Positions 40,371-49,487 of a stretch of DNA of 64,000 nt are shown here, piece by piece (position 1 is the first letter of the stretch; every line of letters begins with the position of its first letter). Origin of the DNA: an uncultured delta proteobacterium (lineage in GTDB: Bacteria; Desulfobacterota; Binatia; Binatales; Binataceae); the NCBI GenBank assembly GCA_963774665.1, contig CAVZGB010000015.1, positions 68,823 through 132,822 on the forward strand, in the 5' to 3' direction. The notes beneath the pieces were generated by a model. It saw only the letters and a program-made list of their open reading frames with translations. It did not search any database and had not been told where the DNA came from. The position numbers were made by a program, and so were the translations under genes.

Positions 40371-42185
40371 TCAGAAAATCGGCAGCTTGATTCCTGCCGT
40401 GACCATCGCGCCGCTGGCGACGCCCATCAGCGCCTCGCCTGCTACCAGGCCGGCTGCGAGCAGAATCCCGGGTCCGCTCTCGGCTTCATCCTGGGATCCA
40501 AAAAGCGAATGCGCCAGCGCGCCGATAAAAATCGCCACGCTGAGTCCGAACGGAAGATAGAGACCGATCGCGGCAGGCATGATCGGGGTGCGCCACTTCG
40601 ATCCGATTCTTTCAAGGTAGCGATCGGTGAATCCGAGAATCGCCGCGAGTGCTGCGCCCGTCGCGATCGTCCCGAGCGGCAAGCCGCCATGGAAAACTCC
40701 CTGCGTCACTTTCGCCATCAGAAACGCCTGCGGAGCGGCCAAAGCACCGGCCCGCGCGGTCGGAGTGCCTGCGATTCCGTAGCCAGCGATCAGCAGGTTC
40801 AGAATTGGCGCCATCAGGAACGAAGAGGCGATCGCACCGACCAGCACTCCGATTTCGAGCGATCGCGGCGTCGCGCCAACGTGAAACCCAGTCGCGAGAT
40901 CGTGCGTCGAATCACCAGCCATCGCCGCCGCCGTACATACGATCGCGCCCGAGAGAATCGCCAGTTGAGGTCCGACGCTTTGCGACACGCCGACCAGTTT
41001 GAGAAACAGCGCCACGGCGAGCAATACGATCACCGTCACGCCCGAAACCGGATTGTTTGACGCGCCGACTATTCCGGTCAGGTAGCCTGCGATTGCCGTC
41101 GCGAAGAAACAGATCAGGGTCAGCAGGATTGCGAGCGCGGCGCTGAGCGCGATTTGTCCACTCAGCCCGAGGCAGATGGCAAAGATCACAGGAACGCAAA
41201 GCGCCACCGCGGTCAGCACGGCGCGCGCTGACAGATCAGTGTCTTCGCGCGCCGTTGCGACGGCTTGCGTCGATCGCACGACGCGGATGCTGTCGGCGAT
41301 CGCGGACGCGATTCGCGTGCGCAGCTTCCACAGCGTCACGACTCCGCCGGTCAGCATCGCGCCAACGCCGAGATAGCGCACCTGCCCGCTCCACAGTTGC
41401 TGCGCGGTCGTCGCGGCGTCGCCCGATCCGCCGGAGTGAAATACAGTGAGCACGGGAATCGCGACCAGCCATGCGAATGCGCCGCCGGCGAATACCAGTG
41501 CCGCGATCCTGATTCCTATGATGTAGCCGACGCCGAGCAGCGCCGCCGAAATGTCGAGCGACCCGGCGACCGCCGCGCTGCCGATCCATCGCGCGCCCGA
41601 AACCGCGCCGGGAATAACTCCTGCCATGTCCTGAAGCGCTTTCAGAGCCGCCGAGATCAAACCGCCTATTACGAGCGGCCGAACATTCGCCTGCGCATCG
41701 CCAGCGCGAAGCACCTGCGCGCATGCGACGCCTTCGGGAAACGGCAGCCGCTCCTCGACGATGTACGCGCGGCGCAGAAACACCACCAGCAGCGCGCCCA
41801 TCGTCGCGCCCACGACGCATAGCGCCGTCACCTCGACGTACGGCAGCGTTCGCACGCCGCCGCCTAAAATAACCAGCGCCGGAAACGTGAAGATCGCGCC
41901 GGCCGCGACCGCCTCGCCCGCCGACGCAATCGTCTGCACCACGTTGTTCTCGAGAATCGTCGAGCCGCCGAGAATCCGGAGAATCGCCATCGAGATGACG
42001 GCCGCCGGGATGCTCGCGGACACGGTCAGGCCCGCATACAAACCGAGGTAGGCATTCGCCGCACCGAGAATCAGCGCCAGCGCGATACCAAGCACGACAC
42101 TCCGCGGCGTCAGTTCGCGAAAAGCTGGTGTGGATACTAAAAACGAAGGATCGTCGCGCTGCACGCCGACACTATATGGCATCAA
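40371..42185 (-). CDS. OPT-family oligopeptide transporter
   Basis: 604 aa and polytopic, with an N-terminus typical of the bacterial OPT superfamily. 10 nt upstream of the GMC gene. Confidence 0.8.
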   Translation of the reverse strand: MMPYSVGVQRDDPSFLVSTPAFRELTPRSVVLGIALALILGAANAYLGLYAGLTVSASIPAAVISMAILRILGGSTILENNVVQTIASAGEAVAAGAIFTFPALVILGGGVRTLPYVEVTALCVVGATMGALLVVFLRRAYIVEERLPFPEGVACAQVLRAGDAQANVRPLVIGGLISAALKALQDMAGVIPGAVSGARWIGSAAVAGSLDISAALLGVGYIIGIRIAALVFAGGAFAWLVAIPVLTVFHSGGSGDAATTAQQLWSGQVRYLGVGAMLTGGVVTLWKLRTRIASAIADSIRVVRSTQAVATAREDTDLSARAVLTAVALCVPVIFAICLGLSGQIALSAALAILLTLICFFATAIAGYLTGIVGASNNPVSGVTVIVLLAVALFLKLVGVSQSVGPQLAILSGAIVCTAAAMAGDSTHDLATGFHVGATPRSLEIGVLVGAIASSFLMAPILNLLIAGYGIAGTPTARAGALAAPQAFLMAKVTQGVFHGGLPLGTIATGAALAAILGFTDRYLERIGSKWRTPIMPAAIGLYLPFGLSVAIFIGALAHSLFGSQDEAESGPGILLAAGLVAGEALMGVASGAMVTAGIKLPIF

Positions 42186-42294: not shown

Positions 42295-42786
42295 TCAGCT
42301 GTTCTTCGATTCTGCGAGCTTCGGATAATCCACCGGCTTGCCGGCTTGCTTCCAACCTTCGATGCCGTCGCTCATCACGCTCACGTCGCTGTAACCGGCA
42401 GCTTCCGCCCGACGGGCGGCTTCATGCGACGCCGTTCAATGCAAGTCGGCGCAGTAGAATACGAGCTTCGCATTTTTGGCGGGTGGCAACTCTTTCTCGA
42501 CATCGTACTTGTCGTCACTCGTGAGCAGGTGCGCGCCCGGAATCACGCCGGCCGTCGAACGCAGCCCCCATCCGTTCGCATCGTAAATATTTACGTGCGA
42601 ATTCGGATCGGCCATCAACGACGCAAGCTTATCGACGCGGATGACGGAGAACTTGTCCGGCTCTTTCGGCTTGTTGTTGAGCAGTGACGCGAGGTCGAAC
42701 GCAAATGCCGACCCGGCGGCCGAAAAAAGAATCACACCGACAATCGCGGAGACGATCGAGCGGCGCGTGCGCAAATTCATACTCAT
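42295..42786 (-). CDS. periplasmic single-domain rhodanese-like sulfurtransferase interrupted by an in-frame TGA inside the active-site loop (FYCADLH-TGA-TASHEAARRAEAAGY...)
   Basis: Track ORF 42436..42786 (signal peptide plus rhodanese fold through the catalytic FYC) stops at TGA 42436-42438. The same frame continues for 46 more codons that complete the rhodanese domain (...SDVSVMSDGIEGWKQAGKPV). A GC hairpin gccgccc-gtc-gggcgg starts about 14 nt after the TGA. Confidence 0.6.
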
Positions 42787-42852: not shown

Positions 42853-43904
42853 CTACACCGCGTCGAATACTCGCGCCCAATCGTCCAGCGCGGACTCATT
42901 TCCGGGCACGAGCTGAATCACGAACTGGTTGAAGCCTCCATCGCGGAGTGCTCGGATTCGTTCGCGCAGTTCGGTCGCGGTCGCGGTGAAGGTGGTCGCT
43001 GCGATGAATTCCGGGGTGAGGAATTTCTGCTCTTCGGGCCGCACCCCAATCAAATGCATCTTGTGCATTTGAAGATAGCGCACGTCTGCGGGCTCGTAGG
43101 TCGCATGCTGCTTGCGATATGCGTCGAGCACCGGCGCAACTTCAGGCGGCAGTTGCAGGCCCAGGCTCGCCTCGACCAGTCCATGCAGGAACACCACCGA
43201 CATCGGACCCGCTTGTGCCTTCGCGCGCGCGCTCGCGGCAGATTCGCCGTCGGCCAAGACGCATCCGAGCGCAAACGCAGTGCGATAGAGACTCTCCGGC
43301 GAGCGACCTGACTCTCGACACGATTTCGCCAGCTCGTCAGCCTCGTGCAGCGCACGCGGGATGGAAGAGCTGAACGTCATCCAGCCGTCGGCGATCTCCG
43401 CCGTCAGCTTGCGCGCTTTTGGCGCGAACGCCGAAATATGGAGTGGTATGCGATCGCTTATGTTGATCATTCCCGCCTCGGGATTGAGAAATCGAATCTT
43501 GTGCTTCGCCCCTCGGTTTCCCACTCTACGGTCTCTCCCGCCAGCAGCCCGCGCACCACGCGCAAGTATTCGCGCAGCTCGGACAGGCGCATCGGGCCGA
43601 GGCCCATCGTGTTGCGAGCGGTGAAGCCCGTGCCGACTCCAAAAATAATTCTTCCTGGCGCAAGTTTGTTCAGCGATGCGAGCGCGTTGGCGGCAACCGG
43701 CGCGATCCGATTGGTTGGTACCATCACTCCCATGCCGAGCTTGATCTTCGAGGTCTTGTCGGCCGCCAGAGCCATCGTGACGAGGATATCCGGGACCAGC
43801 ATTTGCGAATCGTAGAACCACGCGTGGGTGAAACCCAGCTCCTCAGCGCGCTTCACCGTCTTCCAGGCGTCGAGGTTCGAAGCCAGAGCGATTCCAAAAT
43901 CCAT
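42853..43904 (-). CDS. LLM-class flavin (possibly F420)-dependent oxidoreductase, with an apparent frameshift near 43480-43500
   Basis: N-terminal 145-aa ORF (43467..43904) and C-terminal ORF (42853..) together form a luciferase-like monooxygenase. Confidence 0.7.
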
Positions 43905-44045
43905 CGTCCTTCACCTCAAATGGTTTTGTCGCGATCCACTTCGGCCGCTAATGATTCATGCAGTATCATCATTTCCGCGGACCTGAAATGTGCGTATCGT
44001 CCGAGATTGTCAACTCGATGCGTCAATCGAGCCAGGAGGAGAGTA

Positions 44046-44825
44046 ATGATGAAACTATACGAGCATCCGTTCTCGCCGTACGTGCAGAAGGTCAAAATCG
44101 CGCTCTACGAAAAGAACGTAGCGTTCGAAGTCGAAGTCCCCGACGCATTCAGCGGCGCGCCAACCCAATTCGGCAAGACCAACCCGCGGCTCGAAGTGCC
44201 TGCGCTGGTGGACGACGGCTTTGCGATTTTCGACTCGACCATCATCCTCGATTACATCGAAGATAAATGGCCGGCGCCCGCGCTCCTGCCGTCGACACCG
44301 CGCGAACGCGCGCGGGTGCGGATGATCGAAGACGTCTGCGACACATACTACGAGGCGATCAACTGGGGATTGATGGAAGTTCGCGCGTGGAAGCGCGTGA
44401 CGGGAGACGCCGCGAAACAGCTTGAAGCGAAAGCGTCCGAACAAACGGCCGGTGTGTTCGCATGGCTCGAGCGCGAACTCGGCACGGCGAACTATTTCAA
44501 TGGTGCATCATTCGGCTACGGCGATTTGAGCGTTTATCCGCACGTGCGCGGTTCGATCGTATGGGGCAATCCGCCAAAAGCCGGAACGCGCCTGGCCGAA
44601 TGGCTCACTCGCGTCGAAGAACGCCCGAGCGTCCGCAAGACGATCGAGGCGGCTCAACAGTTCACGGGCTCAATGGATTCGTTGCCGCAGATTCTCGAGT
44701 CGGGCGCATTCGCCCGCCAGTACCGCGACCATCGCCTCGAATGGATGATTCGCAGCGGCGGCGTCGAGGTCGTGCTGGCCGGTTTGAAAAAGAAGACGAT
44801 TCGATTTTCGAGCGAAGTATCCTAG
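44046..44825 (+). CDS. glutathione S-transferase
   Basis: MMKLYEHPFSPYVQKV..., thioredoxin-like N-domain and helical C-domain. SD aggaggagagtaATG. Confidence 0.85.
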   Translation: MMKLYEHPFSPYVQKVKIALYEKNVAFEVEVPDAFSGAPTQFGKTNPRLEVPALVDDGFAIFDSTIILDYIEDKWPAPALLPSTPRERARVRMIEDVCDTYYEAINWGLMEVRAWKRVTGDAAKQLEAKASEQTAGVFAWLERELGTANYFNGASFGYGDLSVYPHVRGSIVWGNPPKAGTRLAEWLTRVEERPSVRKTIEAAQQFTGSMDSLPQILESGAFARQYRDHRLEWMIRSGGVEVVLAGLKKKTIRFSSEVS

Positions 44826-46487: not shown

Positions 46488-46955
46488 ATGGCAAAGATTC
46501 GTGGCGAAGGCCCGCAGCCGGATATCGACGAGATCATGCGCCTGCACAATCTATGGGTGAAGGCGAATCGCACCGGCAGCATCCCGATGATGCGCGACGC
46601 GTTCGTCGGCGGCGAAAAGTTCTTCGGATGGAACCTCAACGGCTTTTCTTACGACGGCATCGAAGAGTGGGCGACGCTGTGGGAATGGCTGGCCAGGTTC
46701 AAAGCGAAAGCTACCCTCGGTCAAGATGAAGACCTGCGCGTGCGCGTCCGCGGCGACATGGGATGGCTCTCGTGCACCGCGCCTTTCACGATCACGCTCG
46801 AAGACGGCCAGCCTCTGCCGGGCAGCGGCAAGTTCCGCAGCACCGAGGTCTACGTTCGCGAGGACGACAAGGGCAAGCCGGTCTGGAAGATGTGGCATTG
46901 TCACTTTTCCTGGTGTGCGCAAGGTCCGCGAATGGCTTTCGAGAACGAGGCTTAA
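46488..46955 (+). CDS. NTF2-like/SnoaL-like domain protein (hypothetical)
   Basis: 155-aa ORF with a Trp-rich small alpha+beta composition. Low certainty. Confidence 0.45.
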   Translation: MAKIRGEGPQPDIDEIMRLHNLWVKANRTGSIPMMRDAFVGGEKFFGWNLNGFSYDGIEEWATLWEWLARFKAKATLGQDEDLRVRVRGDMGWLSCTAPFTITLEDGQPLPGSGKFRSTEVYVREDDKGKPVWKMWHCHFSWCAQGPRMAFENEA

Positions 46956-46959
46956 GGCG

Positions 46960-47975
46960 ATGGCCAAGGTTCGCGAGTTCGGCGTCGGTTTCGAAAGCCC
47001 CCACGCGCGCGAGTTCGCCGCGCATGCCAGGCGCGCCGAAGAATTGGGCTTTGGGACGTTTTGGGTGCCGGAAGATCCTTTCTACCGTGGCGCATTCACG
47101 GTCGCATCGGCGATCGCGTGCAACACCTCGAAAATCAAGATTGGTCTCGGCATCGTGAATCCCTATTTGCGGCATCCGGCGTTGACCGCGATGGAATTCG
47201 CAGCGCTCGACGAGATTTCAGAAGGACGCGCGATTCTCGGAATCGGGGCGGGACTGAAGGACTGGATCGAGGGACGGCTTAAAATTCCATACACAAAGCC
47301 GACCGCGGCGATGCGCGAGACGATCGAGATCATCCGCGCGATTTTTCCGCGGCGAAGAAGTCACCTATGCGGGAAAGGTGTTTCAGGCCGAGCGGATCAA
47401 GCTCAGCTTCAAGCCGTTGCGGACCGAAATTCCCATCTATCTCGGCATTCTCGGCCCCAAAAATTGTGAGCTCACGGGCGAGGCGGCCGACGGCCTTTTG
47501 CTCAGCATCATGTCCTCGCCCGCATACGTGAAATTCGCGATGGAGCACGTGCGCCGCGGGCTTGCGAAGTCGGGCCGCGAAGAGCGCGCTTTCAACGTTG
47601 GTGCGTACATCTTTTCTTCGATTTCAGAAGATGAGCGCGCTGCGCGCGACCGTTTGCGTCCGATCGTAGCGATGATGATCTCGCTGATGGCGCCGCAGCC
47701 GAACACACCGATCTTCGCGGCGGCCGGATTGCCGGCTGATGACGATTCGCGCGTTCGGCGCGAGTTTCGCTCAAGGAAAATTGCCGGTGGATATGGTCAC
47801 CGACGAGATGCTCGATACGTTTACGATCGCCGGCAGCCCCGCGCGATGCCGCGAGAACCTCTCGCGCCTGATCGAAGCGGGAGTGACGGCGCCAGTATTT
47901 TTCGAAGTGCCGGGCGTGCCTCCACAACAAACAATGGATGACGCGCATCGGCATCTCATGCCGTATTTCACCTGA
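46960..47975 (+). CDS. LLM-class flavin-dependent oxidoreductase, with two apparent frameshifts (about 47352 in a T5/CC run; about 47740)
   Basis: Three consecutive ORF pieces in frames 1, 2 and 0 read through as one luciferase-like protein (MAKVREFGVGF...IRAIF / GEEVTYAGKVFQAERIKL... / ...MTIRAFGASFAQGKLPVD...APVFFEV). Confidence 0.65.
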
Positions 47976-47989
47976 GAGAGGAGTCCACC

Positions 47990-49487
47990 ATGGCATTTGA
48001 AGTTCCCTCAGCAGAAGAATTGAAGAAAATCGCGCGCGCAAATCATATCGAGCTGAACGACGGAGAACTCGCGGCGCTCCAGGGCATGATGCCCGGGCAG
48101 ATGGCGATCTTCGAGAAGATCGACGCGATTGAAATTGCGCCGCAGGAATCGGTCACCCGTTACCGCGATCGCAAGGCGGGTGAACGCCCGTCGCCGAAGG
48201 ACGATCCGCTGAACGCAATCGTCACGCGATGCGTCGTCAAGGGCGCGGCGAGCGGTCCGCTCAAGGGCAAGCGCGTGGGGGTGAAGGACAGCGTTTGCGT
48301 AGCGGGGATTCCCGCGAGCGGCGGATCCTCGGTGCTGAAGGGCCACGTGGCCTCGAGCGACGCGACGATCGTTTCGCGGATGCTCGACGCGGGTGCGGAA
48401 ATTGTCGCGACTCTGAACATGGACGACTTTGCGCTGTCAGGCGACGGCCGCACCAGCTTTTATGGACCGTCGCGCAATCCGCACAACCCGGAATACTGCG
48501 CCGGCGGTTCGTCGTGCGGATCGGCGGCGGCGCTGTACTACGACGATATCGATCTGACTATCGGCACCGACCAGGGCGGCTCGATCAGAATTCCCGCGTC
48601 GTGGTCTGGCGTCGTCGGTATCAAGCCGACCTACGGTCTCGTGCCTTACACGGGCGTGATGAGTATCGACCCGACTCTCGATCATGTCGGCCCGATGGCG
48701 CGTAGCGTGAGCGATGTTGCGCTGCTGCTCGAAGTGCTCGCGGGCAAGGACCACGCACGATCCTCGACAGCGCGAGGTCACGACCGCGCCATATCGCGAG
48801 GCGCTCGGCAAGTCGCTCGACGGAATCAAGCTGGGTGTCGTGCGCGAGGGCTTTACCCACGCGGGCGCCGAGGCCGACGTGAATGCCGCGGTGAATCGCG
48901 CAGTCGCGGCGCTCGGCAAACTCGGCGCGCGCGCGACCGAGATTTCTATCCCGGCGCATCGCGACGCCTCCGATCTGCTCTACGCGATCGTGCCCGAGGG
49001 AATGGCGATGCTGGCGCGGACGAATCTGCAAGGGACCCATCACACCGGCGCGTACATGCCCGAACTCGCCGCGCATTTCGGCCAGCACTTTCCGGAGCGG
49101 GCCAACGACGTCGCGCTGACCGTGAAGTTCATGCTGGTGTTCGGCAACCTGATGCGCGAGCGCTATCACGGAACGTTTTATGCGAAGGTGCAGAATTATC
49201 GGCCCGTGCTGACGGCGAAATACGATGCGGCGCTGGCCGAGTATGACGCGCTCGTGATGCCCTCGACGCCGATGAAGGCGCATCGCCTCGACGAACGCGC
49301 GCCTTATTCGATGATCACCAACACCGCTCCATTCGATATCACAGGGCATCCGGCGATCAGCGTTCCGTGCGCCAAGTCCAATGGACTTCCGGTCGGCTTG
49401 ATGATCGTCGGGCGGCATTTCGACGACTCGACGCCGCTGAAGATTGCGTATGCGTACGAGCAGAGCGTCGATTGGTTGAGGCAGTAG
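47990..49487 (+). CDS. amidase (amidase-signature family), with an apparent frameshift near 48770
   Basis: GKRVGVKDSVCVAGIP and GGSSCGSAAAL...GTDQGGSIRIPAS signature in frame 2. The C-terminal 257 aa are in frame 0 (track ORF 48714..49487). Confidence 0.75.

Follow-up and report, generated by a model that had tools for sequence, protein, structure and literature searches.

Rhodanese selenoproteins and the bacterial selenocysteine insertion sequence (SECIS) are both well known, and five rhodanese forms with the motifs UxxS, UxxG, CxU, UxxG, and UxxxxU (U, selenocysteine [Sec]) are listed in a 2026 review of the prokaryotic selenoproteome (PMC13188914). Form 1 (UxxS) is represented by Geobacter sulfurreducens WP_010941598.1 (Zhang and Gladyshev 2005, as cited in PMC13188914; also PMC9312934), and TsoB is "rhodanese form 5", with the motif UxxxxU (Haft and Tolstoy 2025, as cited in PMC13188914). 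Here, we describe a gene for a putatively exported rhodanese from an uncultured member of the Binataceae (Binatia), located in a 64,000-nt stretch of DNA (GCA_963774665.1, contig CAVZGB010000015.1, positions 68,823-132,822; hereafter the window, whose coordinates are used below), in which an in-frame TGA (42438..42436, minus strand) inside the active-site loop is very probably read as Sec. The system is not a new kind, but the protein is unlike every curated form compared in having Sec at loop position +5 beside the catalytic Cys, in being a stand-alone domain with predicted export, and in its pairing with an OPT-family transporter.

The best NCBIfam match of the protein was the rhodanese domain of TsoB (NF045694; E = 4e-12, residues 92-158), with only the rhodanese half of the model aligning (44.9 bits; cut-off, 805). 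TsoB likewise has Sec at +5, separated from the catalytic position by the same four residues, in an extracytoplasmic redox context. However, both positions are Sec in TsoB, whose 572-position model includes a DsbD-like membrane domain and whose gene lies in Tso neighbourhoods, whereas the protein described here has Cys at position 0 (CxxxxU), consists of a single domain of 163 residues predicted to be exported, and is linked to OPT. The scores against rhodanese_LYCAU (NF041203; 31.2 bits; cut-off, 115), where the motif of our protein reads FYCADLHU, and against the PQQ-associated CXXCW rhodanese-like family (TIGR03865; 38.1 bits; cut-off, 128.05) were also below the cut-offs. The rhodanese_LYCAU proteins (form 3, CxU) and forms 2 and 4 (UxxG) are similarly single-domain proteins with Sec in or near the loop, and the CxU form also keeps the catalytic Cys beside a Sec, but Sec is at +2 in LYCAU and at position 0 in the UxxG forms, as opposed to +5 here. 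The U-T-A-S of our protein also reads UxxS, as in form 1, compared by accession and motif only, and the Sec of form 1 may occupy the same loop position; no Geobacter was found among the source-named homologs in the best 120 matches of the protein search described below, most of which were unnamed. Our literature searches, including one for TsoB, found no prior description of a periplasmic OPT-linked rhodanese selenoprotein.

Exchange of TGA and cysteine codons at codon 117

A preliminary description of this stretch had reported an in-frame TGA in an otherwise complete rhodanese that becomes full length on read-through, with the TGA at loop position +5 after a retained catalytic Cys, and our analysis bore out both points. 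The minus-strand translation of the gene, from its ATG at 42786 to its terminal TGA at 42297..42295, starts with MSMNLRTRRS, reaches KLVFYCADLH and the lone internal stop, the TGA at codon 117, and continues in the preserved frame as TASHEAARRAEAAGYSDVSVMSDGIEGWKQAGKPVDYPKLAESKNS up to the terminal stop; the residues directly after KLVFYCADLH and the internal stop are TASHEAARRAEAAGYSDVSVMSDGIEGWKQAGKPV. With Cys set at the TGA, the PF00581 match spanned codon 117 and scored 40.8 bits (curated cut-off, 22.2), and the profile alignment to solved rhodaneses (YgaP, CQAGKRT; 6MXV) identified Cys112, which opens the active-site loop, as the catalytic Cys and codon 117 as +5 (Table 1). Codon 112 was TGC in 33 of 33 Sec-form sequences, that is, those with TGA at codon 117. 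The contrast drawn earlier between this preserved frame and indel-type disruptions elsewhere in the window was also upheld by the adjoining luciferase-like (LLM) gene, which is frameshifted here and intact in four other genomes.

The TGA is widely shared among orthologs. A protein search over 5.8 billion proteins returned 377 homologs, and among the best 120 clusters, which were inspected, 109 stopped at the TGA position (length, 106-154 residues; query coverage, 65-71%), those whose sequences were read ending in FYCADLH, whereas 11 were full length (152-168 aa) and read FYCAD[PTL][QK]C-TASHEAARRA, with Cys at the stop position. Full-length Cys orthologs of 161-167 aa showed 74-82% identity. 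The source labels were "hypothetical protein" or "rhodanese-related sulfurtransferase", from Candidatus Binatus, Binataceae, and "Acidoferrales" metagenome-assembled genomes. A scan of ortholog loci using one genome per GTDB species yielded 35 Binatia loci with 10-kb flanks, in which the aligned codon was TGA in 32 and TGC in 3, and never TAA or TAG. Eight distinct Cys-form DNA sequences had TGC or TGT at the codon 117 position. A profile search of 1.84 billion representatives extended the comparison to the wider family and to distant lineages, three of which, with less than 50% identity, also had TGA followed by the same downstream frame (ending in FYCADIH, FYCANTL, and FYCANWR before the TGA). 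Both an in-frame UGA kept across species and Cys homologs aligning with the UGA, as found here, characterize selenoprotein genes, and the TGA/Cys exchange at codon 117 is, judging from the aligned sequences, a classic Sec/Cys pair.

Three options had been offered for the TGA, namely a Sec codon, a nonsense mutation, and a base-call error, and the ortholog alignment, with TGA (32 species) or TGC/TGT and never CGx or another stop, agreed with the first. A recent nonsense mutation, leaving a pseudogene in this genome, would be in keeping with the disrupted LLM gene next door; however, the TGA is shared by 32 genomes at species level and by over 100 protein clusters, purifying selection continues after it, and the LLM frameshift, by contrast, is unique to the window. 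We regard this explanation as refuted, with a residual likelihood close to nil. An error of base calling or assembly, in which a true TGC or TGT was read as TGA, is even less credible. The DNA seems to come from a metagenome assembly that has one or more indel-type defects, but assemblies made independently in many projects and with many technologies (MFD, SMAG, SPRUCE, palsa, JGI, ENA, and Logan) all have TGA, and the TGA forms differ systematically from the Cys forms in the neighbouring codons (LH-U versus xQ/K-C) and in the hairpin described below. Both mutation and sequencing error are therefore excluded, because the TGA is conserved across species and the sequence downstream of it is under purifying selection.

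Two further features of the Sec and Cys forms were observed. Codon 116 co-varied with codon 117, being mostly His in TGA forms (LH-U, TH-U, IH-U, and RH-U), and the residue before the second Cys in Cys forms was Gln, Lys, or Arg (xQ-C, xK-C, and xR-C). In four loci (L016, 3074-3790; L036, 4681-5714; L037; and L038), a Cys-form rhodanese (161 aa) was situated directly 5' of the Sec form, both upstream of OPT; in L016, the tandem consisted of a TGT paralog and a TGA paralog. Such a tandem Cys/Sec pair may be an isoform pair responding to selenium supply.

The sequence after the TGA bears the marks of a translated protein. Pairwise Nei-Gojobori counts among 36 Sec-form sequences gave a ratio of nonsynonymous to synonymous divergence (pN/pS) of 0.171 in codons 46-116 (pS, 0.44; pN, 0.075) and 0.173 in codons 118-155 (pS, 0.35; pN, 0.061), and 45-48 residues followed the TGA in 33 of the 36 Sec forms (52, 57, and 85 in the remaining three). 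The post-UGA sequence is thus conserved at the protein level, as in selenoproteins, and the equal selection on either side of the TGA indicates that the ribosome reads through it. True termination would instead yield a 116-residue N-terminal fragment, with the downstream 46 codons untranslated or forming a separate small open reading frame (ORF). All public gene calls stop at the TGA, and some lineages have an ATG right after it, with gene callers predicting an ORF of 46-47 aa; however, the downstream pN/pS of 0.17 equals that upstream, the post-TGA length is conserved, most species have a non-start codon (ACG, ACC, ACT, AGC, GGC, or CTC) directly after the TGA, and a stop at this point would cut the rhodanese domain inside its active-site loop. 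We consider true termination highly implausible. A second TGA terminates 19 of the 36 Sec-form genes, the window gene among them, which shows that UGA is still a terminator in these genes and that recoding is therefore local; a reassignment of UGA in the genetic code was ruled out on the same ground.

The reading of the TGA as Sec has consequences for annotation. In NCBI, JGI, and ENA, more than 100 protein clusters are entered as hypothetical or rhodanese fragments of 114-116 residues; these are probably full-length selenoproteins, and a family profile would let annotation pipelines call them correctly. Binatota is an abundant uncultured soil phylum, and the Sec reading implies that it decodes Sec.

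A candidate SECIS hairpin after the UGA

In the published model of the bacterial SECIS (bSECIS), a loop of 3-9 nt closes a stem of 4-16 bp, the loop lies 16-37 nt from the UGA, the folding energy is at most -7.5 kcal/mol, and the loop follows the pattern N1-G-[G/U]-N-N2, with N1 and N2 paired (PMC13188914). The preliminary description had noted a GC hairpin about 14 nt downstream of the TGA; the hairpin exists, but its stem begins 16 nt after the UGA. It comprises 15 nt within the coding sequence, with the consensus CCGCCC-GKC-GGGCGG, a 6-bp stem, and a 3-nt loop that reads GUC in the window and GGC in most orthologs. The loop lies 22 nt from the UGA, the loop pattern is C-G-[G/U]-C-G, and the hairpin alone folds with -11.6 kcal/mol, all of which agree with the model. 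As in the E. coli fdhF-type SECIS and the bSECISearch consensus, an intragenic stem-loop soon after the UGA has G[G/U] opening a small apical loop. The hairpin here differs in its short, perfect 6-bp GC stem with a 3-nt loop (or, alternatively, 5 bp with a C-G-closed pentaloop) and in lacking a bulged U and a demonstrated lower stem. The hairpin would direct the recoding, presumably as a SECIS element for SelB with Sec-tRNA.

Synonymous sites under the hairpin were unusually constant. Synonymous divergence was 0.19 over codons 118-128 and 0.44 elsewhere, and codons 123-128 in 33 Sec forms read GCC GCC CGK CGG GCG G..., although these Ala and Arg codons are four- or sixfold degenerate. Synonymous variation within codons 123-128 was nearly confined to the third base of codon 125 (G/T), which lies in the middle of the loop (stem pairing, C20-C25 with G29-G34; loop, G-K-C); the exceptions were GCT at codon 123 in L025 and TGG (Trp) at codon 125 in L012. 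The full stem was present in 31 of 32 distinct Sec forms and in none of the eight distinct Cys forms encoding the same A-A-R-R-A peptide (Fisher p = 1e-7, which overstates independence because the sequences are related). In an alignment of 31 sequences, 185 of 186 core cells were paired; two C-to-U changes preserved the pairing as a wobble, and one change broke it. A lower SECIS stem (nt 7-12 with 51-56) was considered and rejected, since synonymous changes break its pairs without compensation and Cys forms share the codons of its 5' arm.

Several observations weigh against the Sec reading or parts of it. The fold itself was unremarkable in shuffle tests, both for a 76-nt stretch (z = 0.26, in DNA of 60% GC) and for the 23-nt hairpin (z = -1.85, with 10 of 200 shuffles folding equally well), and its significance therefore rests on the comparative data. 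Within these data, the Cys form L011 keeps five of the six stem pairs, covariation is thin, a C-G to G-C change in L044 being the sole compensatory one, and the chief RNA evidence is the freezing of synonymous sites among related sequences. The window and the 46 fetched loci yielded neither selA, selB, or selD nor a tRNA-Sec gene, which is not evidence of absence because they cover only about 750 kb to 0.8 Mb of scattered flanks. For this search, the window and 35 loci were scanned with ARAGORN, E. coli SelA, SelB, and SelD sequences served as tblastn queries, and Rfam was applied to the window. Literature searches also returned no report tying Binatota to selenoproteins or Sec use. The AlphaFold model of a Cys ortholog was poor (mean pLDDT, 60), and we infer the export of the protein, the redox mechanism proposed for Cys and Sec, and a functional tie to OPT.

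The failure to find Sec machinery in the window or fetched flanks could point to SelB-independent read-through, in which a near-cognate tRNA (Trp, Cys, or Arg) or another route decodes the UGA, perhaps stimulated by the hairpin, and yields a selenium-free full-length protein; the conserved frame and the hairpin would suit such a generic read-through signal equally well. However, only Cys codons alternate with the TGA, which is the signature of Sec/Cys exchange, the hairpin agrees with the SelB-type bSECIS model in the sequence of its loop, its spacing, and its energy, and TsoB, the closest curated relative, is itself a selenoprotein whose Sec occupies this loop position. We know of no hairpin-dependent UGA read-through other than Sec insertion that has been established in bacteria. 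Read-through without SelB therefore appears improbable, if less so than the other alternatives to Sec insertion considered above.

Other screens of the same DNA were also performed. No tRNA genes were found in the 64-kb window or the 46 fetched loci, and Rfam at the gathering threshold gave zero family matches across the window. A codon-position GC filter, applied in looking for a second selenoprotein gene in the window, left only this TGA and some adjacent same-frame gene pairs, and an all-against-all BLAST for Sec/Cys pairs over all loci was swamped by shadow-frame alignments.

The CxxxxC rhodanese family and a possible role of Sec117

The preliminary description had held that the +5 position weakens the Sec hypothesis, the TGA not being at the catalytic Cys. 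Our family comparison overturned this argument, as a second Cys is invariant at +5 across the wider family (FYCxxxxC[TM][AS]S), and the +5 location thus supports Sec instead, as one member of a Sec/Cys pair. The profile search recovered 741 representatives at E < 1e-10. The full-length members that were read had FYCxxxxC[TMG][AS]S or, in a 700-residue fusion, the close variant VVYCKGKECTDS, and the single-domain members that were read carried an N-terminal hydrophobic leader. The second Cys is thus a defining residue of an extracytoplasmic clade of CxxxxC rhodaneses and is probably redox-active, and in Binatia it has very probably been replaced by Sec. The Cys paralogs and orthologs and the wider exported CxxxxC family share with the Sec form the same fold, a signal peptide, and the FYCxxxxC[TM][AS]S loop, and the close Cys forms adjoin the same OPT gene wherever the locus reaches that far; they differ in having Cys for Sec, in lacking an intact hairpin, and in the residue preceding the second Cys, which is Gln, Lys, or Arg in place of His.

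The 700-aa fusion (P0202) consists of three tandem CxxxxC rhodanese domains and a C-terminal MauE membrane domain. Such a fusion points to a clade of rhodaneses that cooperates, outside the cytoplasm, with redox proteins of the membrane.

The product would be a precursor of 163 residues, comprising a signal peptide and one rhodanese domain with the loop C112-A-D-L-H-U117. The putative signal peptide was read by eye from an RR motif and an AFA cleavage site; the n-region Arg, the hydrophobic core, and the A-F-A ahead of FD are kept among orthologs, and the mature protein would accordingly be exported if this prediction holds. In the predicted structure of a Cys ortholog, which is of low confidence, a strand (107-111) is followed by the loop and a helix (119-129). 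Cys112 and Sec117 would hence sit at opposite ends of the loop, ahead of the helix starting at residue 119. Judging by the chemistry of rhodaneses and by relatives with CxxxxC or UxxxxU, the two residues probably form a redox pair, in which Cys112 would carry a persulfide or mixed disulfide and the selenol of Sec117 would act as the attacking or resolving nucleophile, generating a selenylsulfide. Compared with the Cys form, the Sec protein might thereby work faster as a module for sulfur transfer or reduction; the tandem Cys paralog kept in some genomes could, speculatively, serve as a back-up under selenium scarcity. This detailed mechanism is much less certain than the recoding of the TGA as Sec. 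Having Sec in place of a second, resolving-type Cys while the catalytic Cys is kept offers a natural experiment on selenium in extracytoplasmic persulfide and thiol-disulfide chemistry.

Linkage to the OPT transporter gene and other neighbours

The OPT gene (Table 1) was found 3' of the rhodanese gene, in the same orientation, wherever a locus had enough downstream sequence (72-96% identity), for Sec-form loci, Cys-form loci, and distant lineages, and it was the sole universal neighbour. No terminator-like site was found within the 110-nt gap between the two genes. The rhodanese gene would be co-transcribed with the OPT gene, and its product probably serves the transporter, possibly by processing something that the transporter takes up or releases. 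To our knowledge, the OPT transporter family has little assigned function in bacteria. The unbroken linkage therefore provides a testable lead on the function of these transporters.

Table 1. Features of the rhodanese-OPT locus and its surroundings, in window coordinates
Feature	Position	Strand	Basis
Rhodanese gene, complete, 163 codons; product predicted to be exported	42295..42786	minus	Translation, Pfam, Cys orthologs
Predicted signal peptide, aa 1-29 MSMNLRTRRSIVSAIVGVILFSAAGSAFA, then FDL	42700..42786	minus	Read by eye from the sequence
Rhodanese domain, aa 52-148	42343..42633	minus	PF00581, E = 3.1e-10, profile positions 3-102 of 102
Codon 112, TGC, catalytic Cys of the rhodanese loop	42451..42453	minus	Aligns with YgaP and other solved rhodaneses
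Codon 116	42439-42441	minus	
Codon 117, TGA, inferred Sec at loop position +5 (C-A-D-L-H-U-T-A-S)	42436..42438	minus	Conservation among orthologs
Post-TGA 46 codons (TASHEAARRA...KLAESKNS), C-terminal third of the rhodanese domain	42298..42435	minus	pN/pS, conserved length
Candidate bacterial SECIS-type hairpin, stem CCGCCC/GGGCGG, loop GUC	42405..42419	minus	Folding and comparative data
OPT-family transporter gene, about 110 nt downstream of the rhodanese gene, probable operon partner	40371..42185	minus	PF03169 OPT, 286 bits
Luciferase-like (LLM/Bac_luciferase) oxidoreductase gene	42853-43904	minus	
GST-family gene	44043-44825	plus	
Second Bac_luciferase ORF	46726-47469	plus	
Amidase ORF	47990-49246	plus	

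A broader interpretation can be offered tentatively, and we hold it to be possible but doubtful. The protein would be an uncatalogued sixth rhodanese selenoprotein form, CxxxxU, acting as an obligate extracytoplasmic partner of the OPT transporter; its Cys-Sec loop would reduce or de-sulfurate a substrate before uptake, and the tandem Cys/Sec paralogs would constitute a selenium-responsive isoform switch. The substrate of the transporter may then be a glutathione, persulfide, or selenium adduct or a metal chelate, with hints coming from a divergent GST gene in about one third of the loci and a FUR gene in distant lineages. If the protein is indeed a selenoprotein partnering OPT, it would give a first functional handle on bacterial OPT transporters, and Binatota would be shown to use Sec.

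A FUR-family gene followed OPT in two distant lineages with less than 50% identity (L045, 3001-5928; L046, 2482-5517), which hints at a metal- or redox-related regulon. In the window, the GST-family gene is encoded on the other strand from the rhodanese-OPT pair and lies upstream of it, with the frameshifted LLM gene in between. A GST gene occupied this upstream opposite-strand position in about one third of the orthologous loci, directly adjacent where LLM was absent.

The LLM gene adjoins the rhodanese gene on its upstream side and falls into two overlapping frames, with the shift near 43479-43518. In L001, L004, L018, and L021, the orthologous gene is one uninterrupted ORF of about 350 aa; the indel is specific to the window and reflects either an assembly error or a young pseudogene. 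Two other ORFs in the window were also short of full length: the second Bac_luciferase ORF encodes only 247 aa, and the amidase ORF matches only positions 41-218 of a 445-position profile. These may be further disrupted genes.

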